Part shown: positions 6,135-42,766 of the stretch, piece by piece
How positions within the stretch are numbered: position 1 is the first letter of the stretch
Layout of the letters: each line of letters opens with the position of its first letter
Source: Psammoneis japonica
Lineage: Eukaryota
DNA length: 64,000 nt
Direction of reading: 5' to 3'
NCBI GenBank assembly: GCA_008632985.1
Contig: QPGO01000259.1
Location: 1-64,000 of the forward strand
Notes under the pieces: generated by a model
The model's input: only the letters and a program-made list of their open reading frames with translations
Told to the model about the DNA's origin: nothing
The model's database searches: none
Translations under genes and position numbers: made by a program

Positions 6135-6179
6135 TTGTTGCAAATGACGTTGCAGACACAATCCAAGTTGAGTGCTGCA

Positions 6180-12119: not shown

Positions 12120-12130
12120 AGACATGGCAT

Positions 12131-12598: not shown

Positions 12599-12677
12599 GC
12601 CAACATGCTGAACATGGCGCCAGAATCCAATCGAATTTCGCCCGCACAACTTGCGAAAACTTGCGCGAGAAAACTTA

Positions 12678-17300: not shown

Positions 17301-18435
17301 GACAGACGTGTGATGTGCGATGACAACAGCACCTGCCAAGCTGTAAATTGAAGCTGCTGCTGCATGTCAATGCCATCTGCACTTGCCATTTCTCTCTGCT
17401 TCTTAAACCAATGGATGCAGGTTGTTTGACGACAGGACAGACAGATGTGCAATGTGCAATGACACCAGCACATTTGTCTCCGTCTGTCTCCATCTGTCAT
17501 TGTTTGTTGTCATTTGTTGTTGACAACAAAATTTTGTTGTCATTTGTCGTCGACGACAAAATTTTGTCTCCGCCACATGTCTCATGACAAAATGCTTCTG
17601 TTTCAAAACAGAGACAAATTGCCAAACAAAGACTTGCTCGCCAAACAAAGTGATGCACATGTGAGTTGGCAACATCAACATGCCAGCCTGCATGTGTGCA
17701 TGCACACACAATCAGCTTTTTGTCCTCAACGGTCCTTTTGCTGAAATTTTTTCACTCAAATGGGTCATCCTTGACAAGTGTGCAGGACCTTGGACAGTTT
17801 TGTCGGAAAGTGAGACAAGCTGCTGTGTGTCCCTGGTTTTCCCTGTTCTGGTCATCACACTGAGACCCACAGCCCCTGAGTGTGTTTTTGAGCATGCTTT
17901 CACACTGATGTTGCCCTTCTCAGATGGCACTTTGCTGGGTCTGGTTGCAAGTCAATGTTGCCAAAAGGGAGCCATGCACAAGGTTTCCCATTGTGCTGTC
18001 AACATTGCACCCCATGCAAGTGTTGTTCCTCTCATGAGAGTGCCGCTGGCACCACTGGAGTCCATGCCACAGGCAGGACAACAGCCAGTTGACAAGAATC
18101 TCAAGTTGTTGATGTCAACCTTGTCAAGAAGGAATCACAAACCATTGTCCCCAGATCCACCAAGTGGAAAAGGGGGTGGATGGTTGGTTTGATTCAGCAA
18201 AATCACCTGATTTTGGCAAATTGAGAGTCCAAACATCTGGGTTGCTTTGGGCGGGTTGGACAGCCACCACCTCCTGGTTGCTCAAAACCACACGTCATCA
18301 TGGCACATGATGTGGCACTTTGAAGTTGCGTCCCATGCCATGCTCACAACAACAAAAAAATGCATCTCCCACCATGGGACTTGATCGTTTGCACAGATTG
18401 ATGGCCACAACATTGATCAAGATGAGAGTGTGGTC

Positions 18436-18832
18436 AATGCGTTCCAGACGCAGGTGGGAATCCATGTGACATTGGGCCCGCAGACTTCTGCGTGTGAGCT
18501 CCGCACTGAAATTGTGCGGTGATTAAAATCTCAATGATCGCCAACAGAAAATGAGGCAATTTTGCGAACGCACAAACTCACCCATGATTGAAGTGCATCA
18601 TTTTTTACTTGGCCAGTTGCATTCTTCAGACATTGAAGAATGCAACTGGCACATTGTTGTTTCTATAAATTTGTCACATAAAACGTCTGGGGCTTCGCAA
18701 AACAGCGAGTCTGGACAATTTTTTTTTAAATGTCACACGTGGAAATCTGCGTGCGAAACATGCGACGGATGACAAAAATTGTTGATGTCACACGTCAGTG
18801 CTGCGAGCTCCCACCCAGGGCTGGAATGCGTC
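18436..18832 (+). mobile_element. MITE family A, 397 bp, TSD GGTC (TpA-converted copy)
   Basis: AATGCGTTCCAG ... CTGGAATGCGTC with GGTC on both sides; colinear with 6970-7365. Confidence 0.93.
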
Positions 18833-20410
18833 GGTCACACCAATTTAAACTGGTGCTCATTTTGTTGGTTGTGCTGGATTTCTTGGCACTGTTGACTGTT
18901 GTGCCACATTCAGACATGCCAACAAGCAGTGTGTTTGCTGACTTTTTTCTGCAGGGCTCTCACGACCGCTGTGCAAACAAGTCTGCAACCACTGGGTTTG
19001 GCTCCACTGCAGATGCAATTGTTGGCATCTGAGGAATGCACACACATGGATGGCGTCATTTTTGTTTCTGCCAGTTTCCCATGACAGAGATGCAGAAAAT
19101 GAAAATGCTCTGATTTCCAACATTGACGGTGCACCATGTGTGACACAGAAAAGGAACAATGGAATGTTGTTTTGTTCAAAGAGAAAAGGGGAGCCAATTC
19201 TTGCAGCAAGTGCAGTTGTTGGATGCTGAAAACAATTGTTGGTGCCTTGTTTGGAGTGTTTTTGGCTTCCCTGTCAAAGCAACAGCAGCAATCATGTGTC
19301 AAAGCAGAGCTTGGCTGCGTGGTGTGGCGTGCAGTGTGCTTTGTCACGGGACAGTGCATGAAACCAAAAGTGCAGTGGATGGGAGCTCCAAACCATTGGT
19401 GATCAGATCTCAAGGAACCAGCTCGTTGAGCTCACTCATTCCACATCTGTGCTCAAATGGATCGGAGCAGCTGTTGTTGCTTGGGCTGAGTTTAATTTCT
19501 TCTCACAACTTCTCAAACTTTGGCATTGGTGAATGTTCCATTTGGTTTGTTGAGAGCAAATTGTGCAACAAAACTCAATTTGTTGCTTGTTCAAGAGTTC
19601 AGTGACACACGCGAACATTTGCTTTGTGGTTTTGTTCACGCACGGTGTCTGTGATGATCACAAATTGCTCATCAGAAAACTGAGTTCTCATCTTGCAGCG
19701 CCATTTGGCCATCAACTTGACACTGGCCCACCATCATTTTCGAACACATGAGCAAACACACAAGACCTTTCTGCATGTGCCCACATCACTGCATTTGAAA
19801 ACTGTTGCCTTTTTGTTTTTGAAAATGGCGCCCACAAGTTTGGGTGCTGCTTTTCATGCAAAAAGGAGCATTCCATCACATGTTCCTTTGTGCACCCAGA
19901 TCTGGAGCAAGTGTTCTGAGTCTGGAACAAGCCCACACTCTGCATCTCTGAGCCCCAAACCAGCAGTGTGTTGGCCATTGCTGCACTGCAATGTCATCCT
20001 GTGGAATCACTGCTTGATTGATTTTGACAAAAACCTTGTGTCCAACAAACCGCTCATGGTCAATGGCTGCACTCTGGGAGAACAAATTCTGGAGGCGCGC
20101 GAGTTTGTGAACTGCCCAAATTGACAACAAACAACCCCCACTCTCTCAAATCATTCTGGCGGCTTGGGTGCATGCTCAAGGGCAGTGACAAGTGCCACAC
20201 AGCATGAACCATGACAGTGCACAGTGCACACAGTGCACCGCGAACCGCAAGCTGTGTTGAAAAAAGATGCCATTGAGGATGATGCACCTGCTGTTGTGGA
20301 TGACTCGTCTGGCAACAAGCGACTGCCACTGGTTTGAGGCTGCACCTCTTGCCTTGGCTCAGATGTCTTCTGGCAATGCTGGGCAGAGTTTTTTCTCTGC
20401 TGAGGAACTT

Positions 20411-20816
20411 GACGGGTTCCAGCCCTGGGTGGGACTCCGTGTGACATTGGGCCCGTAGAATTCTGCGTGCGAGCTCCGCAGTGAATTTGTGCTGCAATGA
20501 AAATGTGAATGATCGCCAACAGAAAAAGAGGCAATTTTACGAACGCATCTCCTCCTTCATGCTTGGAGCACATCAACAATGGTTTGCCCGGCCGGGCATG
20601 TTCTGCGGACATCAAAGAACACACCCAGCGCATTTTCATTCTCACAACTGTTGAAAATAGAAAGCCTGTGGCTTCGCAAAACAGGGAGCATGAAACAATT
20701 TCGTAGAATGTGACATGCAGAAATGTGCGTGCGCGACATGCGACGCGATCAAAAAAACTGTTGATGTCACAGTGCAGCAGTGCGAGGCCCCACCTGGCAG
20801 AGCTGGAGCGCGCGCC
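20411..20816 (+). mobile_element. MITE family A-related subfamily, 406 bp, TSD ACTT
   Basis: GACGGGTTCCAGCCCTGGGTGGGA start; shares GTGACATTGGGCCCG, GATCGCCAACAGAAAA and GCTTCGCAAAACAG blocks; ACTT on both sides. Confidence 0.88.
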
Positions 20817-21478
20817 ACTTGTTCAATGAGAATCAAGAGTTCTCTCGGACAAGATCATGCTCTCTCTCTCTCTCTCTCTGTGCTCTTTCTTGCATCCTCA
20901 AAGTAGTTTAACATGATTGAAACAGATGCATGATGATGCTCGACAGTTCGTGTGATGATTTTTTCCAAAAAACTGGGCCCCTGCTTTTTTGTTGGGGGGC
21001 TCCCCTTTTTGTTGCAAAGCGCTCCCCCCTCCCTGAACCCTCAAGCCTGCTTGGGTGCAGCTCAGAATCCTTTCTCTTGCATTGTGGTCACACTTGATTT
21101 GTGCCAAATGAACGAGGTTGTGCCAAGCAGAAAAGATCAGTGCTCAAGACGGGTTGCTGTCAAGTCTTTCGAGTCGGATCTTGGAGACGCCTGACCGGGA
21201 CACAACCCGGACGCATGTGCCCAATGTCCCAGTCATGACATACATAAGTAAGACATTGACAGGAGTCATTCAAAGGAAAACTTGTGCTGTACTGTACTGT
21301 AGGAAGGAACCTTCTGACTGGTCATGGATGAACTTAAATGATCTCTCAATAAATGTTCGTCAACATTTAACAATAAATGTTGTGTGCACTTTATTTCCGA
21401 GACGTCTGGTTTCGGAGTTGCGTTCCTCTGAAATAAAAAAAACAAGAACAGACCAAAGACCAACAGCACGCACGCAAC

Positions 21479-24400
21479 ATGAAAGCCAAATGGTTGACGC
21501 TTGCGCTCCTGCATCTGCAAGGTAAGAGGAGGAGATGCTCATGGCGTGACATTAATGGTGTGGACCGTTTGTTCTCACACTGTGTTGCGTATATTCTCAA
21601 ACGAGTTCCTGTTTAGGTGCCTGGAGCAGACTTGACGAAAAACGCGAACCCTTCTTTGAAACCAATGTAAGTGCGATTACAGGATTTCACCGGTAGTCGA
21701 CCTCGTCGAACCCTCCTTTCACAGACTTTTTTCATTGTCGTGGGCATTTCTTCCTCATGACATACATCATATACAACTCATTACATTTTTCACTCGGCGT
21801 CACGACCAGCAGCAAGAAGAAACTTCTGTTGAAATTCCTGAATCAGCGCCATTAGCGGTGAGATTGGTGTTTTTGTTTCTCGATGCGTCTTTGCTTGCCA
21901 TGACTATATTGACTAATGTTGTGCTTATTCTCTATTATATTCAAGCTTGATCCGAACCTGCTTGCATACAAAGGCAGATTGAAGTTGAACGAGACTGCAA
22001 AAGGAGTACTCAAGAAACATTCCACTGTTCCTGGAACTCCCGACTACTGGAAGATATGGCTGGAAAAAGAACTCTACATTACGATCGACTTTTTATCGGA
22101 GAACACAGATAACTTACAAACAGAAGATGAACCATGGATGTCGTTTTATTTTGGTACCACTACAACCCATGCTGGAGGAACGTGGGATGAGCCCTTGCCA
22201 AATCCCGACCTGCAGGTTGTAGAGCCTGACCTGGAAGACAGAGATTACTATCCATCGCATGGAATGCACCACACCTTTGCCTCGGTTCCCCGAAGTGGAT
22301 GGTATACATTAGTGATTGGGCAGCATTCTGACCGTAGAAAGTTTGGTGAATACACAGTCGCGGTCAATGAGGTACGATGATGACCAGCCCAGCAGATGCG
22401 CGTGTAAAGACACGGTACCATAAATGCGTTTGAGTCAAAAATTCACTGACCATTCCTGTGTATCTTGGTGCTTATACACTCACCAAGATTATTCTGAAAT
22501 CTGTAACATATAGAGGAGAATTGAAATTGAACGAGCCCGCTAAAGGAGCACTGAAGCGAAGTTCAACTCTTTCTGGAACTCCTGACTTCTGGAGGATATG
22601 GCTGAAGAAAGGGCTCTCCATTACAGTAAACTTCGCTCCGGAGGAAACAAACTCATATGTTCAAGGTGAGGTGATTTTGTATTACGGTACCACCAAGGCC
22701 CATGCTGGTGCACGAGAACACTATGATGCGACCCCTGCGCCGATTCCCGGCTTGCGACGTATTGACCCGAACGAGCGTGATTATCAGGGTTCTTTTAGTT
22801 TTCCATTGGTCCCCCAAGGTGGATGGCACACATTGCTAATATATCAAAATAGTAATTACGAGAATAAAAGAGTTGGTAATTACGAAGTGGTGGTTAATGA
22901 GGTGAGATGAGCAGATGGAGAAGTTGCATTCAAAATGAAATTGGAACTAACCACTGCCTTTATTGCTTTCAATGCTTGCACCCGCAACGTGGAATATGCA
23001 TTTCTCTCAAGATTGTTCCGAAGCCTGTAGTGTATAAAGGAAGGTTGGAATTGGGTAGTTCGAAACGAGGCAAGCTTCGGAAGCAGTCAACTCTTTCTGG
23101 AACTCCTGATTTCTGGAAGATTTGGCTAAAGAAAGGACTCTATGTGAGGATTGACGTGAATGAAACGAAGCGGGACATGGAAGCTGACATGGATTTTTTT
23201 TACGGGACCACCAAGATCCACCGCCCAAGCCCCTTTGAAACCAGGGAGGGTTTCTGGAATCCCGACCTGCAGCTTGTTGAAGTTCGTTATGACCGAATGC
23301 CTGGTCTCTATTATGGCCCTGACTCTGATGAGGAACACGACGTGAGCACCTACACATACCTACCCCACACTGGATGGTACACATTAATGGTTTGGCAACG
23401 TTTTGGTGGTCACGGTAGTAATGGCGAATACGATGTCATTGTTTACGAGCCCGATAGCGACAACGATGGTGTGGTAAATACCAAGGACGAATGTCCAATA
23501 ACCAACATGGATGCCAATGTAAAAGTACTGTCGTGTGATAGTGGCGTTCCTAATGTGATGGCTCAGAGCAATGGATGTTCTTTGAATGACATCATGTTTT
23601 CGCTTCTTCGAGAGTGCGACACTGGAATTGGCTCATCTAGAAAAAAGACGTTTCGGCGATGTGTGTTTACAAAACTGTCACGGTTTGTGACAGGTAAAGG
23701 CAGACTGGAAAAAATCATGGAGTGTGTGAGAAAGACCGATTTGGATGCTCTCAAATTGCTTTGTGGTGACAGTTTTCTTTTTGCCAGTCACACCGATTTG
23801 TACCACTTGGATCCTGCTACGGGCGCTTTCGCATTAGCCGGGCAGATTGACAGTGAACGGCGATTTCCGGCGTCGTTTTCAGACTGGACATACTGGGACG
23901 GCATGGGAATGATAAGTGCTTTCGACTATGATTCTGTGAATGGTGTACTCTGGAGTCTTAACGGCGGTTACATTGTGCAAATGGATCCATCCAACGCCAA
24001 CACGATAGAGGAGATTGAGTTGGCAAAGTCGAGCCATGCGACTTTCCACTGCATCAAGATCATTGACGGTGTGATGTACACAGTATACACGGATGACAGA
24101 ACCGACAGTATCAATAGCCAGCTCGCGACCATCAACACCACCACTGGTGAAATAACAACAATTGGCTATACCGGCAAGTCATGGATTGGAGCACTTGCCC
24201 ACGACGTGCGCACCTCAATCACTTGGGGGGTGTCCTGTCATGACGACTACGACGATGATGGTTATGGTGTGTGCGGTAATGATTATGGTTATCATTGGGA
24301 TGAAACTCAGTTAGTCAGACTAGATCTTACAACAGGCTGGGCGACAACGTGGGAGAGTGGACCTGGTGCCTGGAGCAACATCGAATTCGGGCCAGACGGA

Positions 24401-24568
24401 GAGCTCTATGGAGTTCGCATTGATTCTTCAGACAATGGAAACCAATTCTTTTACCAGATCAACACCTTAACAGGTGATACAACACCGGTTGATTGGAACT
24501 CCACATTACCCTGGTGGGAGAGAATTGTGCCTGGATACATTCTGACGTGCTATTATTACAAGGCCTAG
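21479..24568 (+). CDS. Secreted multidomain protein (~845 aa): signal peptide, three ~140-aa repeats, TSP3-like Ca-binding/Cys motif, C-terminal beta-propeller-like region. Predicted exons 21479-21521, 21617-21666, 21810-21857, 21946-22371, 22488-22901, 23012-24568
   Basis: All introns are GT-AG and in frame; MKAKWLTLALLHLQGAWS leader; repeated YKGxLxL...GTPD(Y/F)WxIWLxK...GTT...GW(Y/H)TL...GxYxVxVxE; DSDNDGVVNTKDECP; repeated (L/I)(D/N)xxTG turns. Confidence 0.85.
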
Positions 24569-24989
24569 CTGGTGGGGAGAATGTGTGCGTGAGGCACCGT
24601 TGTTGCAAAATGCGTTTGGCGGCATCCGAAGCAGAAGCATCCATGTTGCATTTTATGACTAGAAGTAGCATACACACAAAAGAAACACCAGCAGATGCGA
24701 TGCAAGTGGAAACGACTCTGACGATTTCGGAAATGACGGGTGAGAGGCGCACAAATGGGAAACTGCATAAAACTTTATAGAAACAATTTCCAAGCCAATG
24801 TTTTTCTTGTTGTTTTCATGCTAGTAGAGCAAGTGCGTTTGGTCTGGTGTCTGGTTTCATTCTTTTCTTTTTCAATCCCATCGTGGGCATTTGCAAGCTG
24901 TTTCTCGAGTGCCATTCTCATTGCTTCAGAGCACAGCACGGTTGCAATGAGCACTGCAGTGCAAATGAACAAATTACCATGCAGTCACG

Positions 24990-27900
24990 TGCACTGGGAC
25001 TAGACTAAAAGAAAGGCTTGTGACATTGTGCTGCTTTTCTAGAAGTGAGATCTAAACCTGAGGAACTGCTCGGCGCGCTGTCGCCAATGCCAAAGCACAC
25101 CAAACCAACTTGAATTGATCACATGGTAAATTCTTCAGCCCCCTCAAAGGATGAATTGAACAATGAGTCGGCTTCAGCAACCTTGAAATGACAAGGCAAC
25201 CCTGGCAACCTGTGCCAAACCCCCAACGGGGAAAGGGAACCGGGTGTGATGGACTGCTGGTCTTCACAGATGTTGCCAAGGATCATCCCCACAAGCCCCG
25301 TCGCTTCATGCCACCATGCAGGATCTCAGTTGTGAGATCTGCTGGATTGCATTCAAAGCAAATGGGTCCAGTGAGTGACTCACCCATTGCCACCAACTTC
25401 CCAACGGAATGGCAGCAAATGGAGCTCGACTTCTTCTTCAAAGCAGACTCTGGATTTTGCATGTTGTGCACAACCGACATGTTGTCCCCATGAATGCAGG
25501 ATGGGCCAGACAACGGCACACCCATCACCTGCAATTTATGATGTGGGCCATGCAATGACTCTTTACCTTGCTTCATGGCTGCAAACTCAGCCCCAAAGAC
25601 CAAGGTTTCAACCATGCTTTGGCGCTCAGAAAACCATGCGGCGCCAGAGCCATGTTCATGTGGGTGAAACAGCCGGCATGTGAGCGCCTCATCAACTTGT
25701 CATTTGCATGATCAGAGATGACAAACAAGTGCAGATCTGCCTCCAAGCCCAGAGGTCTGGTGCATTGGGTGGGATTGCTTCCTGCACGTCCCCGCAAAAA
25801 GACTTCCAGCCTCATTCCTTGAAGTCAGACATGTCCATGTCCGGACATGTTGGGTCGAACACCAACCCGGCATTGTGTTTTGCCTTGAGGCACCCACGCA
25901 CATGGAACACAGCCTCAAGGTGATTCTCCCTGGGCATGGCAAGCAACGAGGCAAGCTCGGAAACTTCTGTTGTCAGATTGACACGCCCAAGTTTCGCTGT
26001 CCATCACAGAACACCTGCCTGCAATGGGCAGAGCTGGGCTTCATCTGCTGCTGGCTCAGGCAACGCACCTGACTCAGGGCAACAATCCCATGGAAATGGA
26101 GCCGATGCCTGATGTGGCAATGTCTGCCCAGGGCAGTGTTCATCTGGGTGTGCCTTGACATTCTTGACAGCCTGCTGGATGCACTTGCTGGAGCTCATGC
26201 TCCATGCACAGATGCCATTTGGCTTCTGCACCTCTCGGATCTTGGCACCCAGGTGCATCTCAGGGTTGCCAATTGAACCGGGCTTCATCGCGGCGTGCCA
26301 TTGGTGCATCATCTGCGTGCAGCAGTGCACATGCACAGCACTGGAACCCATCCTTGGGCCGGACCATCTCCTTGAGCTGCACATCAGGTTCAGCCAAGCA
26401 AGGCTTCCACCTGAGGTGATGCACGCAGGATGCCAAGTGGTTCCTGAAGTGCTCGCCTGCACTCGTCAACACACAAAGTGCACACTTGACTGTCGCATGC
26501 CTTCCTGCATTGTGACCAAACTCTGGGCCCAGAGTCGCAGTGATCTTCTCACTGTTGGGGGCAGCAGCCAATGTGGACATTCTCTGTGTTTGATGCCTCA
26601 ACCTCCAAGTCATTCAGAGCTGCCAGTGTGAAGGCGATCCTCGCACTCTCGTGTGACACAATGCTTGCATGCATCAAGGTTGCAGGTGCATTGATTGTGT
26701 TTCCACCAGCTGCATGGCGTGCCTTGCACTTGAAGTCCTGCAGCTTCACATCAAAGACCAAGTGATGCTTGCCATGCTGGTGTCCCACCAGCTCCTTGTC
26801 ATCATCAATGATCTCAAATGCCTTGTCAACCACACCCATCTCCTTGTCTGTGGCAGGATGCCACAGACAATTGCCACTTGACTTGTCAATCTTGACAGCC
26901 TCATCGCACATCTTGGGGACATGCATCCTGCACTCATGCATCCATTTGTGACACCACTTGTTCACAGCAGCAATGATCTGCTGCCATTTCTTAAAGGCAC
27001 AATGAACCCACCATGCAAAAGCTGCTGGTTCATCCTTGACAGATCAGGCTCTGGCATGCTCAGCCAACTTGACAGGATTGGATTCCTTCAAGTCTGTGAG
27101 CCATTCCCAAGCAATGGTGCTGTCCTTCCATCAAATGCAAAGGTGCCATCTCCTTTGGTTGTTTTGCGCATTGTTTGGTGCCATCTGCAACCCTGTGGGA
27201 AGGTGTCATCCTTCTGGACTGCATGCCCATCAGTCTTGTGATCAACGACACCATCCTGTGGCAAGCACTGGTTGCCTTTGTTGTTGCATTGCACGAACAT
27301 GTTCTCGGCTGTGACATTCACCGTGAACTCCACTTCCTGCACATGAGGAAATTCAACCTTGCACACATGAGCATCCAAGATGGGATCAGCATTGGCTCTG
27401 CCCTTTGGTGTGTTCCATCCAAATTGAGCTTGTGCCATTTGACTGCCCCAGTTTGTTGGGTGTCCCCGTGAGGTGGCAATGCTTCTGAGTTTGTGCAAAC
27501 ATCAAAAGCAGCATCAGGGATGTTGTCCTCATCGGGTGCACTCGCAGGAGCATCCTGGACTTCATCATCCTCGTGTGGATCAAAGGCAGGAGTCACAGCC
27601 AGACCCAGCTTGGCCTCCGTCAGCCCATTGAATTTCTCAGGCAGTGCCAAATGCGTCTCGTGGCACTGTTCTTCTGGGCTCAAGGTCAGACAGGATGAAT
27701 GGTGGATGACTTGTCCATTGGCTGTCCTTTGGAATCTGACCAAGGCAGCGCCCTGAGACTTCCTTGTTGTCGGGGAATGTGGCTGCCGTGTCCCCAAACA
27801 TGACCCAGTCATGCCAGCCAAACTTGCACATGTGTGAAATGTCAGCTGTTTGTCTGGACACTGTGGTTTTGGGAACCTCTCCATCTGGCTCATAAATGTC

Positions 27901-29330
27901 GTGGACAGTGTTGGATCAGACAAGAGCTTCAAGCTCAAGACAATCATCCCAAAGAAATTTTGGGGCTTGGGTTTTCACCATCTTGCATCTGACATCTTGC
28001 TTGAGTTCACACATGGTGCCCTCAGCAAAGTTGGGCCATGGGGCATGGGGTTCAGTCAGCTCAATGTGACAGTCAGCCTCCCTGGTCTTCTTGCTGAAGT
28101 GGCCCAATGTCTGCTTCTGTTTGGCATGAACATGCACCAGGTGCTCAAAGCTCCAGCTCCGGTGCTTGCCGTAGTGGGAAAGACCTGCCAAGTGATGCTT
28201 TTCAGCTGTGTTGGCAATGTTGTCTGCATTGTTTGGACCCAAGAAGTGATTGCACAGGTTCAGGTGGGCCATCCTGCTGTCCCAATCATGCTGAGCCTTC
28301 TTGACACACGCCCAACATAAATGTTCCCATGTGACTCTGGACGCGTTCCAGCCCTGGGTGGGAGCTCGTAGTGCTGACGTGTGACAACAATAATTTTTAT
28401 CATCCGTCGTATGTTTCGTACGTAGATTTCTACGTGTGATATTTAAAAAAAATTGTCCAGACTCGCTGTTTTGCGAAGCCCCAGACGTTTTATATAACAA
28501 ATTTATAGAAACAATAATGCGCCAGTTACATTCTTCAATGTCTGAAGAATGTAACTGGCCAAGTAAAAAATGATGTACTTCAATCATGTGCGAGTTTGTG
28601 CGTTCGCAAAATTGCCTCATTTTCTGTTGGCGATCATTGACATTTTAATTACCGTATAATTTTACTACGGAGCTCGCACGTAGAAGTCTACGGGCCCAAT
28701 GTCACACGGATTCCCACCTACGTCTGGAACGCGTCTCTGGCAATGATCTCCCAAACCTTGATGTTGGCAGCAAATGTTTTGGTGGGTTGTGGGTTGGCCC
28801 CAGTGTTGAAGTGGGGGCACGGGCAATCATCTCAGTGCAGGCATCAGCACAGTTTTTGGTGGTGTCATCTGCCTCTGGTGTCACCACCTGATTTCTTAAA
28901 CCACACAGGCTGGGGGACGTTGGCCTCCCATGACAAGCTTGGAGGTGCTCTTTTGCAGCTTCCACTGTCTTTGGCCAGTCTTTTTTGATGACAGCAGGCA
29001 GGGCATCAGGGTTCTCATGGGTGGTTTCTGCTGTGCAAAGGTGGCGGTGCCTCCCAACAGCACAGTTGAGGGTGACCTTGGCAGCATGCAGCACACGTGA
29101 GATGCACTCACATGGTGCTGACGAGTGGCAAAAGCTGCAAGCTTGAGATTCCTCTCAGCCCACAGTGGTGCGGTCATCCCCAGGTTGGGTTGTGGATTTG
29201 CTCCGCTGCCTGCTGCACCTCCTAGGATGGAGAATTGGCAAACCAGAGATTGCATCAAAGAAACACATGTGGACATTTGGCGAGCATGTGCTGACCACAT
29301 GCTCTCATTGAGTGTGTGCATCTGTCACAA
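24990..29330 (-). mobile_element. Degraded Ty1/Copia LTR retrotransposon (diatom CoDi-like): gag, partial integrase, RT, RNase H, with an internal deletion near 28125
   Basis: TEPHAPWPNFAEG..ELK (IN); KARHAAGG, ALNDLEV, LGPEFG, LLHADD (RT); ETLVFGAEFAAMK, GDNMSVV, LKKKSSSIC, NPADL (RNase H). Purine tract TTTGAGGGG at 25139-25148 followed by TG suggests the 3' LTR starts at 25137; no matching 5' LTR found; ends approximate. Confidence 0.9.
28340..28735 (-). mobile_element. MITE family A, 396 bp, TSD TCTG; young TpA-retaining copy inserted in Copia gag
   Basis: Perfect 12-bp TIR GACGCGTTCCAG, TCTG on both sides, 28 TA dinucleotides. Confidence 0.96.
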
Positions 29331-29449
29331 ATTGTCTTCAACAAACAACTGCTGACATTTTGCAGACATTCAATCCTCACAACAGGAGCCTCGTGTGCAC
29401 AGGTTTGTCTGGAAACATGGTGTGCACTGTGGGAGCCAGCTGGAAACAA

Positions 29450-31620
29450 GAATCACAAAGAGAGCTTCCTGAGATGGGAGTGTCATGATTGCCACAAAAA
29501 CCAGCCACAAGTTCTCATGCCAGCAAAAGAGCTGAAATGCAGCCCAGACACTCAAGCTCACCTTCCTTTTCATGGTTTTGTGAAGACTTTCTTGATGAGG
29601 TCTTTTGCACGCACAGCCTCACAATTGTCAATGCAGGCAAATTCAAAGTTGACGCAAAAAGGTCTGATGCAGCACTGGTTTGTTCTGCAACAGGTCCATG
29701 TGATTTTGTGATTTGCTCATTTCAAAAAGGCCCAGCATGGGATTTGCTGCAGCAGTTGGTCATGCCATGTGGCATTCAAAACACTGTCTTTGGTGAAGAT
29801 GCGTGAAGAAGAGCCTTTGACAAGCACCATCTGTGGCCGTGTGACCTCCTGGGTGCAAACCACAGCAGAAAAAAACAGCACCTTTGTGCTGGCATGCTGG
29901 CTTCTTCTTTTGATAAAACTCAAAGAGCAAAAAGCAAAAATGTGAGACCTGGGTTGCAGTTTGTGGCTGGTTGGACATGAACCAGGTTTGCACACTGTCT
30001 GGTGCATTCTTTGTGCACACTCCTTTTGCATCAGGCTCATGGCTCCAATGACCCCTGGCTCATGCAGGGACTCATGCACCACAACACATCTTTGTCTCTC
30101 AGAGTGCACTGTCCTGAGCACCACCACTCTTGTCAAAGCAGGTGTGCGCTTCTTTTCTTGAAAGCCATTTTTTTTAAGCTGAGTGTGGGTTGGTGGCCAC
30201 CATCACTGGCTCAAACTCAAGAAAGCACCCTCTCAAAAACTGTCAGTTGGCAGATGCGTGTGGGTGCATCACTTGCACCAACTTGTCAGCCTCTGTCTCG
30301 GCATGATTGATGAAAAATTGTGTGCAGTGTTTCCCCCAAAACAGTGTCAGCATGTGTTGCAAATTAGCCTTGCAGTCAGGCCGACACATTTTTGTCTTCA
30401 AGATGATGAAGGTTTGCATGCACCAGAGTGTTGCCCAGCATTGTCATCTTCTGGATGACACAGCTCCAGTTCTTGTGTCATTGAGAGTCTCTGTGCCACA
30501 TGGGCAATCACCAAATGATGACAAGGCACCTTCCAAGGAGTTGAAACACAAAGTGTGGTGGTGCGTGAGACATTTTCTTTTGCTTTCAAGGGCCCTGTGC
30601 AGAGTGTCTGTGCTGTTTGCATTTTTTGCCTGCCACCCCCATTCCATTGCCACATGCAGCTCCAGAGCCAAGCTCTTTTTGAACACTGTCAGCAGGCACT
30701 CCAGCCAGCTGACTTGCCCTTCACCCATTCACAAAGGCACAATCAGGAAGATCACTTGAGCAGACACAACCGACATTGTTTGTTGCAGCACCATCACCAG
30801 CAATGAGCTCCTTTGTTGAGTGCAGCAACTTCCTCCAAACACCATCATGGCCAGTGACAAGAGCACAAAAACAGTTGTTGTCAGTGATGATTCCTCTTTC
30901 CAAATGCTGTCAAATGGTGTTGACCATGTCTGTGCTGATTTGTTTGTGTGCGCGCATGGGCAGGTGGCAACACAGAATTCTTTGTGGGCTGCACATCCTT
31001 GACAGGGCGTTTCTTGGGGGCCAAATGCTGCAGCAGCATTGCCTGGAAAATGTGCTGCCAACTGGTCCAACTTCATCAACAAATGAACAAACAAAGTTGT
31101 TGAAAAAAGATCTTGGCATGTGCGGGGTTGCCTGGTCTCTGGATCACATCCAAAGCCATGCCATTTGCATGGCATTTGACCTGTGGGTGGCAGATGTGGA
31201 GCGATTCTGTCTGGAGAAAAGAACATGATGCAACAGCAGTGCTCAACCAGCACATCCACCAAAGTTGCCGGTCCCCACTTCCATGGAAAATCATTGGCCC
31301 CAGTTGAATGCCAAACATGTTGGCTCTCAACAAGAGCTTCATTTTCCTTTTCAGCACGTCTTTGTCAGTGCAGAGCTGATGCACGACATCTGCAATTCTC
31401 CTGAACATGGGGCGAATCTGCTCCAGATCATGCAAGGCACAGCGGGTCTGCATCAGTTGGCTCTTTTGCAGTTGATGGCAACTGCAGTTGTGCCAACTCT
31501 GCCAAAGGGACAGCATCTTCTTGATTGAAGCTGTTGTCTTGGAGCATTTTTGCCGTTCTTTCGGGTTGCTCTTTCAGATTTTTGAGTGGTTGTCTCGCGC
31601 ACGTGTGCGCAGTCATTAGA
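29450..31620 (-). pseudogene. Unclassified degraded coding-like sequence, probably TE-derived
   Basis: Protein-like fragments in successive minus frames, TpA-depleted; no family recognised. Confidence 0.35.
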
Positions 31621-34010
31621 CTGTGCAGGTGTGTGTGCGTGTGTGAGGTGCAAGCAGGATGTCGTTTGGGCTTGGTGCACATAAAAACCTGGGTGTGGCA
31701 CCCGGGTTTTCACATTGGCGACAGCCATTAGACCAAAAAAACAAATGCACGTTGACAATGGGCTAAATCCCTTTAATCCCTCTCTTCATCACTGTTGATC
31801 CATGGCATGTGCAGCAGTGACCGCCACAAACTGATTGCCGACTGCTGTGCCAAAGATTGTGGGCGCCACACCCCGGTTTCTGGGGCGATTTTCCCGGGTT
31901 TTCTAGCGCGATCTGTGCGCCGTAGCCTGCCGGCAGGTCCGCACGAAAAGGTGAGCGATGGTGCAGTGCCAAGCTTGGACATGAAACAAAAGTCGCTGCG
32001 ACAACATCAAAAGACGAATTGAAGAAGAGTGTCATGGCGGCGCTCATCGACCAAGGTGCTGTTGATGCAGCGGTGGAAGCTGGACCAAGCTTGCCATCGT
32101 GTGTGACACAAAGCATCACTGAAGAACCACCCAAGGAGCTCAATCTAGAAGAAGTGCTGGAGGAGGCGAACGAAGAAGGTGATGGAGGTGACTCCGATGA
32201 AGAGCATGAAATGGCTGACATGCACGATGAAGCAAGGGCTGAAGCCTTTGATGATCGGCGAAGAGCCGTTGTCAATGAAGATTCTGATGAACAAACAGTT
32301 GAAGTCAGTGACGCCACTTCATTGTTGCTTCACCGCGGGAATGTCGAGCACCCCAACAATCTTCGCATTCCAGCACCGCCAACCGACTGGGCTCCTGCAG
32401 CTCGAAAGGTGCAACAAGGCGAGCCCAAATTTGTGGACGTGGACAACCCAGGCGGCTGGAGTCAGTTCACTTTCCGCCCTGAATTTAACACCAAGGGCAC
32501 CAAACAATGCTTGCACCATTCGCTCCCAACAGGTGCAACTCCTGTTCCCGCCGATGACGAAGGCAGACGCGTGGTCAACAATTGGGAATTTCACTGTGAT
32601 GGGTGGACACGTGCGCAATCAGCCCACTTTGTTCCTGATGATGCTGGAGCAACGCTGTCCCTGCCAAACAGGAGTGGAGCCACAAAAGAAGAGTTGTTCC
32701 CAGCCAGCAGGAAGGGCTCCTTGGATCCGGAAATTCTGAAAGCGCTTGACATGAAGAAGGAGCGAATCAGCAACCGCGATGCTCTCTTTTTTTGTCAGTT
32801 GATTTTACCATTTTGTGACATTTCAAAGTCGACTGTGGACAATGATCCGCGGAAGTCCTTTTACACCGAAGTTGAAAGGTTCTCTAACTTGCATGCTTTG
32901 AGAGACCTAAATCTGTTCAACTCGTGTGGGCATCGTGTCAGCATGGTCACTGCAACAGAGTTGGTGCATTTTGATGGTGTGGTGGTTCGTGATGGGGTGA
33001 GAGGTGGCAGTGATGGTGCCATTTGTCGATGGTGGCAGATCGGATCGGGCTGTGATTCGACAATGGCAACGTCAATGAATCACACTCGCTGGCTCCAAAT
33101 GAAGCGTCTGATCAAGCTTTGCGATGACCAGGAGGCACCACAACGTGGAGAGGATGGGCATGACCCAGCGTGCAAGCATTCTATGCTGCATGATGTCATC
33201 ATGCACAATGTGAATGCGATCACTGGAGTTGCTGAACTCAACACATGTGGCGATGAAACAACTTGGGGGCATGTGGGTTATGGAGAGGCTGGGAGCGGAT
33301 TGACTGGTAGAATCACTGGCAAGCCGGGCATCACGAAGGGGGGGCAAGTTGTCATTGTCAGTGACGTGCACCGTGTTCGACCACGAGCGTGTCCACATCG
33401 TCACAAGCTTCATCCGAAGCCTCAAGGTTGGGGAGCAATGGCCCCCCTTGAAGTGCAAATGATTGTGGAGAAACTGGCACCCATGGTGCAAATGGCCGGT
33501 GGTGACAATGATGAAGGAGGACCAAAGAAGATGTTTGTGGGTGAGCCTCATTCCACGTGGGACAACTGCTTCTCAGGCGACCAGATTGTGGGCTGGCTCG
33601 GCGAAAATGGTTTTTCTGCAACGATGACATGTCGTTGAGATCACCTCCCATCCGGAATCCCTGGCAAGCATTTTCACAAGAAGACAACACGGTCGGATGA
33701 CAGGTCAAAGGTGGCTCGTTTCCATGAGCCAGTCAATGCGGTAAAGACGGTTCCTGGATCGGATGTGAATGGGGAGCACCAACGGCTTCATTGTTCATTT
33801 CAATCTACCTCCTCCTGCAACATTTCAACAGTGAATGCTCTCAATTCTTGTTCAAAACATGTGAGACATCGTGAATGAGGCCAGGGAGCAAGCAAGCACC
33901 ATTGGGGCATTGAAATGAATGAAGCAAGAGCGATGTGCCTCAACACCCACGGACGGACGAATTGATTCCATTGATCACTTGATCAAGAACACACACATGT
34001 TTGTAGATCG

Positions 34011-35032
34011 TGGAAGCGCTGGCACTCGGCAATGCTGCACGGCAAGTTGCTTGCCGTTGCAGTCGCACGTGACATTTGCATTGAATGTTGTGAAGGAAAT
34101 CTGTGTCTGGAGTGGTGTGATGAGAGTCCGATGTCCTGCTGGTCATTTTGAGACAGAGTTTCTCAGCAAATGTCAGAGCACAAGCTGGAGTGTCATGTGC
34201 ATCCTGGAGACTCTGCAATGCGAGCATCAACACAACAAAGCCAGCAACGTCGTTTGGACGTAGCTGGCTTGACTGCCACCATGGGTGAGGACGTCACAAC
34301 CATTCAATGCCGGCAGGCAAAACGTGGTGGCCAGTCATCCCGCTTGTGTGGTGACCTGACACACTTGCGCAGACACATTGACGGATTGGAGACGGGTTTG
34401 AAGCACCCGCATCTTTGTGCTTGGTGTGGTGGAAATGCGCAGTCGCGATGCAACGTTTGTGGGAAATGCCTGCATTGTGCAAGGTCCCACTGTGGGGAAC
34501 ATGGCAGCAAGAATTGTTTTTTGGAAGCACTGGCACTCGGCAATGCTGCACGGTAAGTCGCTTGCCGTTGCAGTCGCACGTGACATTTGCATTGAATGTT
34601 GTGAAGGAAATCTGTGTCCGGAGTGGTGTGATGAGAATCCGATGTCCTGCTGGTCATTTTGAGACAGAGTTTCTGAGCAAATGTCAGAGCACAAGCCGGA
34701 GTGTCGTGTGCATCCTGGAGACTCTGCAATGCGAGCATCAACACAACAAAACCAGCAACGTCATTTGGACGTAGCTGGCTTGACTGCCACCACGGGTGAG
34801 GACATCACAACCATTCAATGCCGGCAGGCAAAACGTGGTGGCCAGTCATCCCGCTTGTGTGGTGACCTGACACACTTGCGCAGACACATTGACGGATTGG
34901 AGGCGGGTTTGAAGCACCCGCATCTTTGTGCTTGGTGTGGTGGAAATGCGCAGTCACGATGCAACATTTGTGGGAAATGCCTGCATTGTGCAAGGTCCCA
35001 CCGTGGGGAACATGGCAGCAAGAATTGTTTTT
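34011..35032 (+). repeat. 511-bp tandem duplication inside the transposase
   Basis: 34011-34521 is nearly identical to 34522-35032. Confidence 0.95.
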
Positions 35033-35326
35033 TTCTCTGCCATGATGAAGGATTGTTTGGTCTTGCACGAGATGACACCAAACTTTTTGTTCACAAACGC
35101 AAGTCAGATTGGAGAGAGCCGTCACAAGCAAAAAAGCGGTTGAGCGCGACTCACATTCAAGATCTTCGTCAAGGGCGCAACAACACTGCATCACAGTGTC
35201 TGTCCATCAGCTGTCGCTGCTTTGCATGACACATGAATCACATTTCTGTCAAATGAAATCACATTTCTGTCAAATGACCACCAGTGCTGGCGAAGAGCAT
35301 TGCTGGTGCACCGATGAAACCAATGA

Positions 35327-35469: not shown

Positions 35470-36351
35470 CTGGCGCCACGACTAAACGATACGTAGAATT
35501 ACTACTGAGTGATTGACATGCCGTGGATTTTCCGCCGGTACACAATCTACGTGGTCTACATGGAACATAAATTTATGTTGGTCTCTGAAGCTATTACATA
35601 TCATTGATTTTGCTGATGCCTCTAATATATGTATATACCAATTAAAAGTCTGACAGAACACCCCGAAAGAACTCTGGAATCTGTATAAAAAAAATTTCTA
35701 TTTAACGGTGCGAACAGAATTGTCGCGAAGCGCTTCTCAAAATAACTTCAGATTGTATATATAGTGAAACATCTACTATTACCAAAACACAGTGACTATC
35801 GGATAAATAGATCCCGTGGTCTTCGCGCGCAAACAACACGATAACGCACAACAACACCATGGCGAGAAACGCGAACGCCGTCCCCTCATCTACAAGCTGG
35901 GAATACGAGATACTATTGAAGTGGTTGGACAATATGTATGCGCTGTATTCATGGGTCAAGTTGGGTTTCTTCTCGCTGCTTGTTGTTGCGTCATTTTACA
36001 ACGTTTTGACCCACGCCGTTTTCTTTGCTTTGTTGCTTCTGCTCGCGCGCCACCAACAGCTCTTCCTGCAGGGTATGGCTAGTTGCACGGCTGCATCGAA
36101 CCCAAACGTGCGCGACCAACTAGCCCTACCCCGGCTAACTCATATTTGTGTGTTCAAGCATGAAGGAATTGCATATGTTATGTAAAAGCCTCAGGAACAG
36201 ACATAAATTTATCTTCCTGTAGAGCCCGTCATTGTGTACCGTTGAAAATCCACACCGCCTGTCAACTTGCTCACTCACTCACTCAGCTGCACTGTACAGT
36301 ACCGTACACACACCACATTCAACATACAGTGCACGCCTACACAGTCAAGAA

Positions 36352-37611
36352 ATGCAGGACTTTTTATCTGAGAAGAGAGGCAACAGCATGAACCTCTTTT
36401 CAAGAATCGTTGCCTTTTGCTGTCTATTCGCGCTTGTGGTGGGGGTATATCTGACCCGGTCCCAAGAAGACTTGCGACTGCGACTACACCTGCGATCGTT
36501 TCGAACCCAAAGTGATGAAAGGGAAGATGTTTCGGTTTCTATTGAGAATGTGACTTCCAGCCCGCTTTCTCCTCCCGGTGCTGCTCCCAGGTCGCGTACC
36601 AACGTATCACATTCAAACCCCAGTCCGACCATCTCGCCTACAAGTCTTAAACCCACGAATCTCATTGTCGTCGAAGAGACGCAGACAACAACAACAACAA
36701 CAACAACCCCATCCCCAATCAAAACACCTTCTCGACCAACACCAGAATGGCTCGAGCTGTGTATCGCAGAGGTGAAAAACGACAAGAATCTGTACAAACC
36801 CTTTGCCGGCGTTCTCAAGCGTGGTGCCAATGGGAGTCCCCGTGATCCTCCGTTCAAGGGGAAAAGCTTTCAGGGAAATATATATCGTCTGGGCGACTGT
36901 ATTAGACAGTGCTCCACCTGCAACAATACGCTATTGGACGAGAATGGTGGCTATTTGCCCAACTTGACGTCTTCGGACACCATAGCTGGCATGTACGGGG
37001 ACATGGCTGAATGCAGCAAGCCAAATCAATCGAGAATTGAAGAACAACAAAGCAAAGAAAATTTCGACGTCGTCGAGCAAATCTTTCATATCATCGAGGA
37101 AGAAAAACGACCCGGTTTCCACAAACCAGGGTCGGATGATTTGGTGATTCATTTACGGCTCGGGGATGTTATTGAATACTCCAAGCAACTCGACCAAAGC
37201 ACTAAAGCCAATGCTTCTTATTTGCTGATACATGGCGGCCACAGTAATCATCCGAATTATGGCCTAGTCAAGACTATTTTCAGTGTCTACGACTACATTG
37301 ACATGTTCGAAAATACCACGGATTCTGGCAACGACATCAAAACCATCCAGCTCATGGGGGGCTCCCACAGAGCAGAAATGTGGCAACAGAGTAAACTTTA
37401 TGCGCACTGTCTCTCCAGAGGACTCGCAGAGGCAGGATACCATGTGAAAATGCAAATCGAAGGAAAACACCCCGATCAAGACTTTTATTTCATGGCGCAT
37501 GCGGCGAGATTCGTACTCAGCACGGGCGGTTTTTCAGAAATGATTGGCAAGATGGTCATTCGTTTCGGAGGACAACTCTTGGGCGCCCAAAACCTGAAAA
37601 ATCCAGAGTGA
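36352..37611 (+). CDS. Type II membrane glycosyltransferase, fucosyltransferase (GT11/GT23)-like
   Basis: N-terminal TM helix, S/T/P stem, LVIHLRLGDV (HxRxGD) and PDQDFYFM..A..FV.STGGFS motifs; intact ORF with normal Tyr content. Confidence 0.8.
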   Translation: MQDFLSEKRGNSMNLFSRIVAFCCLFALVVGVYLTRSQEDLRLRLHLRSFRTQSDEREDVSVSIENVTSSPLSPPGAAPRSRTNVSHSNPSPTISPTSLKPTNLIVVEETQTTTTTTTTPSPIKTPSRPTPEWLELCIAEVKNDKNLYKPFAGVLKRGANGSPRDPPFKGKSFQGNIYRLGDCIRQCSTCNNTLLDENGGYLPNLTSSDTIAGMYGDMAECSKPNQSRIEEQQSKENFDVVEQIFHIIEEEKRPGFHKPGSDDLVIHLRLGDVIEYSKQLDQSTKANASYLLIHGGHSNHPNYGLVKTIFSVYDYIDMFENTTDSGNDIKTIQLMGGSHRAEMWQQSKLYAHCLSRGLAEAGYHVKMQIEGKHPDQDFYFMAHAARFVLSTGGFSEMIGKMVIRFGGQLLGAQNLKNPE

Positions 37612-40996: not shown

Positions 40997-42766
40997 TTAG
41001 AGTGTCTGTGCTGCTAGTATTTTTCGCCTTGCTCCCGAATCAAGCTCTTTTTGGATCATGTCTGCAGGTATTCCAGCCAACGTTTTGGCCTTTACCCATT
41101 CAAAGGCTCGGTCGTGTAGATCGCTCGAGCAGACACAGCCGACATTGCCGACAGCAAGCTCCTCATTGAGCGCATTCACTTGATCCAAACCATCATGACA
41201 TGTCAGTAGAGCACACACTCGATTATTCTCCTGCACAATTCCTCTTTCTAGATATTGTCGAATGGTGTTGACCGTGTCTGCACTCGATCTCTCATAAACA
41301 AGCATGGGTGGCATTGTTGTCTTATTGTTGAGATGAGATGTCTCGGATCGATCCATCACGTTATATCCGTGTTTTTTCAACTCTTGTTTTATGGATTGAA
41401 ACCAAATTTTTGAAGGAGTCTCCAGAATCACGGGACGCTCTTGTACTGTATTCTTTGTTTTTGGACTACCATCACCTGATTCTTCTTCGTCGTCGTCGTA
41501 TGCTTGTTCAAGCCAAGCCAAAATGGCATGCAAACACAACGTCCGTGCATCAATGATAATGTCCGCTAGCCCTAGCTCTTCTACTTGTTGACGAACACTT
41601 GTTTGTCGTCCTCCACCACTTTCGAGAAGGACGGTTGGATCGACCAGTACGATACGTTGTACTTGTATGGGGCGTTGTTCTTTGGTGCCTTGTTCTGCGA
41701 GTTGCTTTAAACAACGAAATCCCTGTGCCATTTCCTTGAGATCCAAATCTAAATCTTCTGCAATAATCGGAGTGTCCATAATGTCCATACCCAAAAATGC
41801 GGCTAGAGCATTCTTCTTCATTGTGCCCCTTTTGGAATATCGCAATCTATTCCACAGTTGCCGTGTATTTGTTTTGTGCTCGAAATCGCCTTCTTGCGAA
41901 AAAACGAGTGAACCATGGTGTTGTAAGGATAGAGCACTTTCATCTCCACTGGTGGCATCGGCTTCCAAATACAACAATTGTTGTCCATTAACAGAGTATA
42001 ACCAAGACTTTGGAATCTTCATGCCTTGCCATGAAGTATCCTTGCTATACTGACCATCATTGACCTGCCAGTACATTGGTACATTGTTACTTGTGGTAGC
42101 ATATTTGGCAATCATGCCTTGTACAAGAGACGCATCTTCGTAGATGGGCCAAAAGTGTCGTGGCCCTCGTCGATGCAATGATAATTCCGTCACGTCCGAT
42201 CGTGCTCCGGCTAATCGAATGGTACAACAACAACTTTCTGATGTTGCAAATGGGGGCTCACGTCCCAAGCGAATCCGTTCGGCATATTCCTTGTTGGCTC
42301 GGTGCCACACGGACGTTAGCACCACCACATTCGATAACACCATGGAGCCCGCTACCGCTCCTCGTAGAGCACACAGTATGCGGGCATAAAGAGCTCGATG
42401 AGGTGGTAAGGTTTCATATAACCAGGTATGATTTGTCGGATGATTCTTCATTTGTTTCGATAGATAGCGAGAAGATGCCACGATATTTTGTGGAGCCTGT
42501 GTTGCCCAAATGAGACTCGGAATGATGTTATAAACAGCATAACGTGCAATAAAACGAAATCTTGTAGTCAACGAATGCTGTGGCTGTGGTTGTAGATGCA
42601 AAGATCCTTCCAACGCGGCAATCATTCCAACGGTTGTGCTTCCAACACTGACGGCCGACAGAACAGGCAGCTCGTCTGTACTCCCTGTGAGTCGATCCAC
42701 AGCATATCCAGCAATGCGACATGCAATATGCAACTTGGATGGCTCATTCATATCATCTCGAGGCAT
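40997..42766 (-). CDS. Hypothetical protein, 589 aa
   Basis: Long uninterrupted ATG-TAA ORF with ordinary composition; no domain recognised. Confidence 0.85.
   Translation of the reverse strand: MPRDDMNEPSKLHIACRIAGYAVDRLTGSTDELPVLSAVSVGSTTVGMIAALEGSLHLQPQPQHSLTTRFRFIARYAVYNIIPSLIWATQAPQNIVASSRYLSKQMKNHPTNHTWLYETLPPHRALYARILCALRGAVAGSMVLSNVVVLTSVWHRANKEYAERIRLGREPPFATSESCCCTIRLAGARSDVTELSLHRRGPRHFWPIYEDASLVQGMIAKYATTSNNVPMYWQVNDGQYSKDTSWQGMKIPKSWLYSVNGQQLLYLEADATSGDESALSLQHHGSLVFSQEGDFEHKTNTRQLWNRLRYSKRGTMKKNALAAFLGMDIMDTPIIAEDLDLDLKEMAQGFRCLKQLAEQGTKEQRPIQVQRIVLVDPTVLLESGGGRQTSVRQQVEELGLADIIIDARTLCLHAILAWLEQAYDDDEEESGDGSPKTKNTVQERPVILETPSKIWFQSIKQELKKHGYNVMDRSETSHLNNKTTMPPMLVYERSSADTVNTIRQYLERGIVQENNRVCALLTCHDGLDQVNALNEELAVGNVGCVCSSDLHDRAFEWVKAKTLAGIPADMIQKELDSGARRKILAAQTL

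Follow-up and report, generated by a model that had tools for sequence, protein, structure and literature searches.

Repeat-induced point mutation (RIP) of fungi such as Neurospora changes C to T at CpA in duplicated DNA, and in doing so creates TpA dinucleotides and AT-rich DNA. To our knowledge, mutational genome defence aimed at a specific dinucleotide has been known essentially from this C>T process. Its A>G counterpart, aimed at TpA, entered the literature in 2026 and so far concerns a single chlorarachniophyte, mainly its viral inserts. That report, a preprint of April 2026 (Mettrop et al., bioRxiv 10.64898/2026.01.13.699255), followed mutation-accumulation lines of Bigelowiella natans and found that, of 231 de novo mutations in integrated giant-virus and virophage regions, 230 were A>G/T>C, all on TpA, with a rate of about 6e-7 per site per generation. 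The preprint further describes 124 clusters in 95 Mb, with Rho still at 0.45 in the nucleocytoplasmic large DNA virus (NCLDV) region, an enrichment of transposase and reverse-transcriptase domains in TpA-depleted sequences, and an ADAT2 homologue that was put forward as the candidate enzyme. Here, we describe a 64-kb stretch of DNA (referred to as the window, meaning the whole stretch that was analysed) in which copies of one miniature inverted-repeat transposable element (MITE) are found in a TA-intact form at 28340-28735 and in TA-depleted forms at 18436-18832 and 6970-7365. The probable explanation is that silenced DNA of a diatom-like eukaryote underwent TpA>TpG/CpA hypermutation in situ, at the DNA level, and that the 28340 copy is a recent MITE insertion into converted DNA.

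The copy comparison included three full MITE copies and one diverged relative, all within the window. The TA-intact copy (396 bp, GC 41.9%) lies on the minus strand relative to the other copies and contains 28 TpA and 26 CpG dinucleotides, corresponding to observed/expected ratios (O/E) of 0.84 and 1.49, respectively. The copies at 18436-18832 (+) and 6970-7365 (+) are inverted relative to it and contain 20 and 19 CpG; the diverged relative, also TA-poor, is located at 20411-20815 (+). In a four-copy alignment with scripted counts, the 28 reference TA sites read TG at 15, CA at 7 and TA at 6 in the 18436 copy, and TG at 9, CA at 13 and TA at 6 in the 6970 copy, with no other outcome in either; all 44 changed sites across the two converted copies (22/28, or 79%, per copy) were TG or CA. 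Outside the TA sites, 340 aligned columns of the 28340 and 18436 copies show 13 substitutions and one indel; six of these substitutions are CpG transitions, and a further two lie in a single dinucleotide, which reads CA vs TG and resembles another converted TA. The 6970 copy was changed in 28 of 338 non-TA columns. The excess of change at TA columns of the 18436 copy was pronounced (22/28 vs 13/340, Fisher p = 3e-21). A sequence-only reading of this DNA had proposed, from a hand alignment, that 22 of 28 TA sites were changed in the 18436 copy, to 15 TG and 7 CA only, with few other differences and about half of those at CpG. The scripted counts reproduced the former exactly and agreed with the latter, and the example strings quoted in that reading, together with the run TATATA that became CACATA in one copy and TGTGCA in the other, were found as written in alignment columns 257-262 and 310-346.

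Both converted copies are altered at 20 shared sites, with the same outcome at 12 of them and TG in one copy vs CA in the other at 8. Because a disagreement between TG and CA would otherwise require a double change, these sites indicate that the ancestor had TA and that each lineage changed once. The copies were converted independently, as the sequence-only reading had suggested. Additionally, TG and CA occur side by side within single copies (TG:CA of 15:7 and 9:13), so that both strands were edited. Altogether, four independent lines of evidence place TA as the ancestral state and give the direction of change as TA to TG or CA: the discordant outcomes at 8 of the 20 doubly converted sites, the abundance of the element in its TA-rich form, the replacement of Tyr by Cys or His at 10 of 11 conserved columns of a neighbouring transposase, and a decayed fragment of a DUF6739 gene.

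Information on abundance was provided by one public DNA run that contains the stretch (0.89 of sampled words), from which contigs built on exact 31-letter words were mapped on positions 14001-34000. Summed word depth was 52-66 in single-copy bins, 29,099 and 13,634 in the two bins with the 28340 copy, and 9,443 and 5,751 in the bins with the 18436 copy, which by our own arithmetic corresponds to roughly 1,200 and 420 single-copy equivalents per base for the 28340 and 18436 copies, respectively. Across 28340-28735, no alternative letter reached 10% of depth, the threshold for listing. High depth combined with no such variant indicates that being TA-rich is usual in this very abundant family and no peculiarity of the 28340 copy; the TA-rich state is neither derived nor confined to this copy. 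An element family that is very abundant and yet TA-intact also indicates that repetition alone is insufficient for conversion.

The protein-level evidence for direction came from a TA-poor DDE transposase gene remnant, nearly full length, that was delimited at 32178-35220 (+) by tblastn of 150 listed relatives. A frame of 570 aa at 31926-33638 (+) is still open, and a search among 1.84 billion representatives returned 1,595 relatives at E <= 1e-3, the best of them 49% identical. PF13843 (DDE_Tnp_1_7), presumably a profile of piggyBac type and labelled 'Transposase IS4', was matched by 5 of 12 scanned relatives, 3 of them above the curated cut-off. At the 11 columns with Tyr in at least 60% of 32 relatives, the frame reads Cys (TGY) at seven, His (CAY) at three and Tyr at one, and its overall Tyr content is 0.4% compared with 3.7% in the relatives. 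TA O/E in this element is 0.06-0.13 while its CpG O/E remains 0.64-0.73. As follows from the codon table, a change of TA to TG or CA removes TAA and TAG stops and makes no in-frame stop out of a sense codon; converted genes would for this reason remain open but recoded.

The remaining line of evidence is the comparison of an intact DUF6739 gene of 593 aa (40997-42778, -), located in a TA-normal island, with a decayed, TA-free fragment of about 360 bp (30606-30963, -) that matches the 3' end of the intact gene from 10 kb away. The two are 52% identical over 101 aa, and in a reading by eye the fragment carries TG or CA at most TA positions of the gene. The fragment was also matched in a BLAST of two-letter recoded sequence, which otherwise gave thousands of spurious matches, its statistics being unfit for such an alphabet; only this match was taken as real and the others were discarded. 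The gene and its fragment form a second before/after pair.

The 396-bp element is a MITE, that is, a non-autonomous DNA transposon, as seen from its terminal inverted repeats (TIRs), a target site duplication (TSD) of fixed length, its short and non-coding sequence and its many copies. The left TIR arm (28340-28363, +) begins with the 12 nt GACGCGTTCCAG, and pairs with the right arm (28712-28735, -); the repeat is imperfect, with 12/12 terminal nt and 20/24 nt overall paired in a count by eye. The TSD TCTG was read directly at 28336-28339 and again at 28736-28739, directly beyond the element end. The TSD was also 4 bp long at the other three insertions, namely GGTC around the 18436 copy (18432-18435 and 18833-18836), AAAT around the 6970 copy (6966-6969 and 7366-7369) and ACTT at the diverged relative, and four distinct TSDs at four sites indicate four independent insertions. 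Frames overlapping 28340-28735 gave no Pfam matches. The centre of the element is a perfect palindrome (28521-28559, 17-nt arms and a 5-nt loop), in which the TA sites of both arms were symmetrically converted in the 18436 copy, and the single strand folds into one long hairpin of -78.9 kcal/mol, compared with -42.5 +/- 4.0 for 100 shuffles (z -9.2). With regard to the superfamily, the 4-bp TSD is other than TTAA and the TIRs are dissimilar to the ends of the adjacent DDE element. No autonomous partner turned up, and a scan of metagenomes with a 19-nt invariant word of the MITE returned 10 loci, all of them chance matches of 19-26 nt without further MITE homology.

Whole-window O/E values were 0.22 for TA, 1.60 for CA, 1.58 for TG and 0.56 for CG, and a simple segmentation separated seven TA-normal islands, 17.2 kb in total, from 46.8 kb (73%) of TA-poor DNA. 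Six of the islands are gene islands with TA O/E of 0.58-0.71 and CpG O/E of 0.80-1.09, and contain an aldo/keto reductase gene with an intron, the DUF6739 gene and several long frames without an assigned family; the seventh and smallest is the MITE itself (28318-28719). Borders between the two kinds of sequence are sharp and lie at about 12.7, 14.7, 21.2, 25.1, 35.4, 37.8, 40.8, 42.8, 48.2, 53.5, 56.1 and 57.5 kb. The TA-poor tracts contain only 153 TpA (O/E 0.02-0.07), with CpG O/E of 0.21-0.61 and TG and CA O/E mostly of 1.7-1.9, the first tract (1-12675) having a TG O/E of 1.48. The immediate flanks of the MITE contain 6 TA over 3,040 bp and 5 over 2,665 bp (TA O/E of 0.03 each, CpG O/E of 0.28 and 0.17). 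The host DNA to the left, taken as 25055-28317, has 6 TA in 3,263 bp (TA O/E 0.03, CpG O/E 0.30), and that to the right (28721-31550) is likewise TA-poor and CpG-poor and includes the decayed DUF6739 fragment. Judged by its CpG O/E of 0.17-0.30, the host DNA is old. The claim that the MITE forms a TA-rich island in nearly TA-free DNA was confirmed (O/E 0.84 vs 0.03), and the same contrast in CpG (1.49 vs 0.17-0.28), together with the intact TSD, supports the view that the copy entered DNA that was already converted.

The host DNA had also been described as a Copia element, and this was not borne out. Among the 93 open frames in 25.0-31.7 kb (45 aa or longer), and among the 229 frames scanned window-wide, none had a Pfam match to reverse transcriptase, integrase or gag, and no pair of long terminal repeats (LTRs) flanking the host tract was found in plain repeats or in purine/pyrimidine-collapsed sequence searched with 32-letter seeds. 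The host DNA left of the MITE gave no Pfam match of any kind, and a homologue search with one host frame (27318-27974, -) found none. A Ty1/Copia identity of the host is therefore not supported, these searches having shown no gag, integrase or RVT_2 remnants and no flanking direct repeat.

The footprint in the window resembles the B. natans process, as presented in the main text of the preprint, in several respects. The changes are almost only A>G/T>C at TpA, they affect both strands (TpG and CpA), they are local and they spare genes; additionally, one of the TA-poor tracts of the window encodes a DDE transposase. The window differs from B. natans in that its footprint is near-complete, covering 73% of 64 kb, and in its targets: instead of giant-virus and virophage inserts, a MITE, a DDE transposon and further repeats without an assigned identity are affected. 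Furthermore, the rates in B. natans come from mutation-accumulation lines, whereas the process in the window is seen as a relative footprint. In the main text of the preprint, no passage with the word 'motif' goes beyond TpA, and the words 'context' and 'trinucleotide' are absent, whereas the window has a preference for a pyrimidine at the +1 position.

This preference was measured by assigning conversions to a strand via the ancestral state. The base before the edited A was always T. Editing occurred at 23 of 36 opportunities when the following base was C, at 14 of 28 when it was T, at 3 of 16 when it was G and at 4 of 32 when it was A, that is, at 37/64 before a pyrimidine vs 7/48 before a purine (p = 4.5e-6), which gives the motif T-A-Y (Y, pyrimidine); for TACG the figure was 16 of 22. 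The same tendency was seen window-wide in the TA sites that remain, where the numbers of TAY and TAR (R, purine) were 65 and 173 in TA-poor bins vs 809 and 563 in normal bins (p = 3e-19). TTAA accounts for 30 of 118 residual sites vs 32 of 684 normal ones, and ATAT, GTAC and ATAC for 0, 1 and 2 of the 118, respectively. The T-A-Y preference, and not shared ancestry, accounts for the agreement in outcome at 12 of 20 doubly converted sites and for the fact that 4 of the 6 TA surviving in the 18436 and 6970 copies are shared, these being resistant contexts. Escherichia coli TadA recognises UACG, and TACG at the DNA level (PMC13170351). The window is similar to TadA and ADAT2, which convert A to I that is read as G, in that the edited A follows T and mostly precedes C or T, with TACG favoured (16/22). 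Natural TadA and ADAT2 act on tRNA or mRNA loops; in the window, by contrast, DNA was affected, and TAT was lost at least as fully as TAC.

The copies also provide information on tempo. Of the 26 CpG of the reference copy, 6 and 7 were lost in the two converted copies, vs 22 of 28 TA, so that TA loss is about 5-6 times CpG decay on a log scale by our own arithmetic. The relative footprint is 79% of TA lost vs changes of 1.7-6.6% at other sites, and the process runs at tens of times background. By our own classification, substitutions that are neither at TA nor at CpG number 5 in the 18436 copy and 19 in the 6970 copy, an approximately 4-fold difference, and yet 6 of 28 TA are left in both. This indicates that TA loss is fast and saturating, and that TA content serves as a before/after mark and not as a graded clock. 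The proposal that TA content dates insertions held to that extent, and failed as a clock (5 vs 19 background substitutions with 6 TA each). Overall, the sequence-only reading is partly supported: its core, consisting of the direction of change, the independence of the copies and an insertion after conversion, stands, the Copia host is wrong or unproven, and the dating was too optimistic.

Duplications within the window provide a further order of events. A tandem duplication inside the transposase gene (34011-34521 vs 34522-35033) is 96.9% identical, its differences including 11 at CpG, one TA/TG and no discordance between TG and CA; the lack of discordance indicates that the duplication took place after conversion. 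The repeats at 58-1094 and 3296-4330 are likewise post-conversion, with 98.7% identity over 537 aligned bases.

In the explanation that we favour, silenced mobile DNA subject to CpG decay would have been hypermutated in place, by A>G on either strand with T-A-Y preferred, so that conversion would have become almost complete in 73% of the window with the six gene islands spared. Editing of both strands in single copies, and of elements that are DNA transposons, indicates a process that acts on DNA in place and not via an RNA copy, and the coincidence of TA-poor tracts with decay at CpG suggests that the target is silenced, methylated chromatin. The older 18436 and 6970 copies would each have been converted where they were located, and the 28340 copy of this very abundant MITE family would have landed recently, with a 4-bp TSD, in DNA already converted. 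Such a late arrival would be the reason why it keeps its TpA and CpG. The agent would be a TadA/ADAT2-like adenine deaminase working on exposed single strands of silenced DNA; such an enzyme is possible, and a T-A-Y motif with TACG favoured, similar to the UACG of TadA, would fit an adenine deaminase of the TadA family.

The alternative that bears most directly on the age of the insertion is that the 28340 copy is not younger but was protected from conversion, for instance by a lack of methylation, by its hairpin fold or by a length insufficient for recognition on its own. Some observations weigh on the side of protection. The fold of the element is very stable, and the family is seemingly very abundant yet mostly TA-intact, so that repetition alone is no trigger; the edge of a TA-poor tract may also fall within a transposon near a gene island, which would hint at targeting by chromatin domain. 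Other observations limit the favoured explanation as a whole. The filled 28340 site was seen at full depth, in a 2,763-nt contig that begins 27 nt inside the element, but this reach is shorter than the 31-letter rule for bridging. No empty allele of this site was seen in the one run, in which contigs cannot show absence, so that the youth of the insertion is without support from polymorphism. The run itself may be the window's own assembly sample and would then not be independent, and the abundance of the MITE is a sum of contig depth rather than a copy number, counted over contigs at least 95% alike. De novo conversion was not seen either: between run and window, 36 single-letter differences were found over 14225-31995, of which 35 were transitions, mostly CpG<->TpG/CpA, and only one of the 36 was of the TA/TG kind, at position 28173, where the window has TA and the run has TG. 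Finally, TAT loss exceeds TAC loss window-wide (retention index 0.016 vs 0.039), which makes the fit to the UACG of TadA a partial one, and the diatom-like label was derived from two genes. Against protection, two copies of the same element, also in TA-poor DNA, each lost 22 of 28 TA, and protection from TpA conversion sits poorly with the retention of all CpG by the 28340 copy (O/E 1.49 amid 0.17-0.28) and with the lack of any variant of at least 10% in contigs at least 95% alike, both of which fit a recent arrival. We therefore infer an insertion younger than the conversion of its surroundings, and consider protection unlikely.

The other explanations concern the changes themselves. A reverse, RIP-like process, in which CA and TG were changed to TA by C>T and made the 28340 copy TA-rich from a TA-poor ancestor, has in its favour that a single pairwise comparison is symmetric and that fungal RIP makes TpA from CpA in repeats. 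It is extremely improbable in view of the 8 discordant TG/CA sites, the abundance of the TA-rich form, the Tyr>Cys/His changes at 10 of 11 columns, the difference in TA O/E between gene islands (0.58-0.71) and tracts (0.02-0.07) and the intact CpG of the TA-rich copy. An artefact, in which a modified base at TpA in repeats (e.g., a modified thymine) is misread as TG or CA, deserves mention since some long-read chemistries are known to miscall modified bases and the library type of the run is unrecorded. A miscall on one strand would, however, give two variants at half depth, and contigs of 552-4,212 nt at about 60x exact-word depth reproduced the TA-poor tracts with 0-3 differences, as one full-depth variant; moreover, post-conversion duplications carry identical converted states and the coding changes are coherent, so that we regard an artefact as very improbable. 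Similarly slim are the prospects of an ADAR-like A-to-I editing of transposon RNA followed by reverse transcription and reinsertion, even though ADARs favour a U at the preceding position and the hyper-editing of repeats from A to G is a familiar phenomenon (10.64898/2026.01.13.699255). Neither the MITE nor the DDE transposon is copied through RNA, each converted copy contains both TG and CA (15:7 and 9:13) and has an intact TSD of its own that differs from the others, and the same signature is reported to arise in situ in single-copy integrated DNA of B. natans (10.64898/2026.01.13.699255). In situ hypermutation of silenced DNA, followed by the arrival of the 28340 copy, accounts for these observations more readily.

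Comparison with other mutational systems helps to delimit the process. Like RIP, it is a transition hypermutation in a dinucleotide context that affects mobile or repeated DNA beside intact genes, alongside cytosine methylation; unlike RIP, it runs in the opposite direction, removing TpA by A>G change and increasing the GC content, and repetition alone is insufficient, as the abundant TA-intact MITE family demonstrates. APOBEC and ADAR in animals offer a parallel as deaminase-type hypermutation that restrains mobile elements and leaves clustered genomic transitions, but they act on cDNA or dsRNA intermediates with a bias to one strand, whereas in the window DNA transposons were changed on both strands within one copy. 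The decay of 5-methylcytosine at CpG likewise feeds TG and CA and is seen in the same tracts (CpG O/E 0.21-0.61); it cannot, however, remove TpA, and was slower in the window (6-7 of 26 CpG vs 22 of 28 TA).

Some additional features of the window were recorded. Possible ends of the DDE element are a 36-nt inverted repeat of 83% identity (31555-31590 / 35637-35672), which is without a matching TSD and shows weak homology beyond, so that element ends are not claimed. The border of the TA-poor tract lies near 35440, and if the inverted repeat is real, the right 230 bp of the element would lie in TA-normal DNA upstream of the frame at 36223-37611, in which case conversion would stop at a chromatin border and not at the element end. 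In the read set, a cluster of differences at 15392-15584 was present at about half depth (26.6-29.6 of ~66), as for a heterozygous diploid. A contig with the full depth of single-copy DNA connects 20406 with 20819 through two other letters, corresponding to a site without the 20411 element; since the filled site is also at full depth, this joint probably comes from a paralogue of the host repeat and not from an allele. Arrays with an 8-bp period were found at 334-817 and from 3016 on, inside a larger repeat unit (spacings of 2,738 and 1,273 bp), with a strong asymmetry between strands (AT skew of -0.6, and CA O/E of 2.5-3.0 vs about 1.2 for TG). The gene-island frame at 52215-53528 (-) contains internal repeats of about 300 nt and has a weak extensin-like match (E 7e-7), under the curated cut-off.

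With regard to lineage, the genes of the window have long uninterrupted frames, and two of them gave best protein matches of 57% and 75-77% identity, with none near-identical; their named relatives are all diatoms (Amphora, Skeletonema, Seminavis and Ditylum). The window probably represents a second lineage, diatom-like to judge from these protein matches, with a process of the B. natans type. Full-text literature searches for TpA>TpG/CpA hypermutation found no report besides the B. natans preprint, and among the titles listed for diatom MITEs and piggyBac no bearing work was found. The process itself is already known, from that one 2026 preprint, and the lineage, the targets, a far stronger footprint and the extended motif look new.

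The locus is of value as a clean internal control, in which one element in three exposure states fixes the direction of change. It shows action copy by copy on DNA transposons and places the relative speed at about 5-6 times that of CpG decay and tens of times that of the background, and the third base of the motif (T-A-Y) narrows the search for the enzyme. More broadly, we would give even chances to the existence, beyond the chlorarachniophytes and in a diatom-like stramenopile, of an 'adenine RIP' that is specific for TpA(Y) and edits both strands. Its targets in situ would be silenced DNA transposons and MITEs; it would outpace CpG decay several-fold, and would have removed over 95% of the TpA in roughly three quarters of the region. 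If true, this would be a genome-scale defence that may be widespread among algae of the SAR (stramenopiles, alveolates and Rhizaria) clade, and elements would be disabled by recoding (Tyr to Cys or His) and by loss of TA sites, not by truncation. If the organism is a diatom-like alga, the system would be older or more widespread than one lineage, and TA-free tracts could then help to locate silenced mobile DNA, and to tell old insertions from new ones, in algal genomes where protein homology fails to annotate transposons, as it does in this window.

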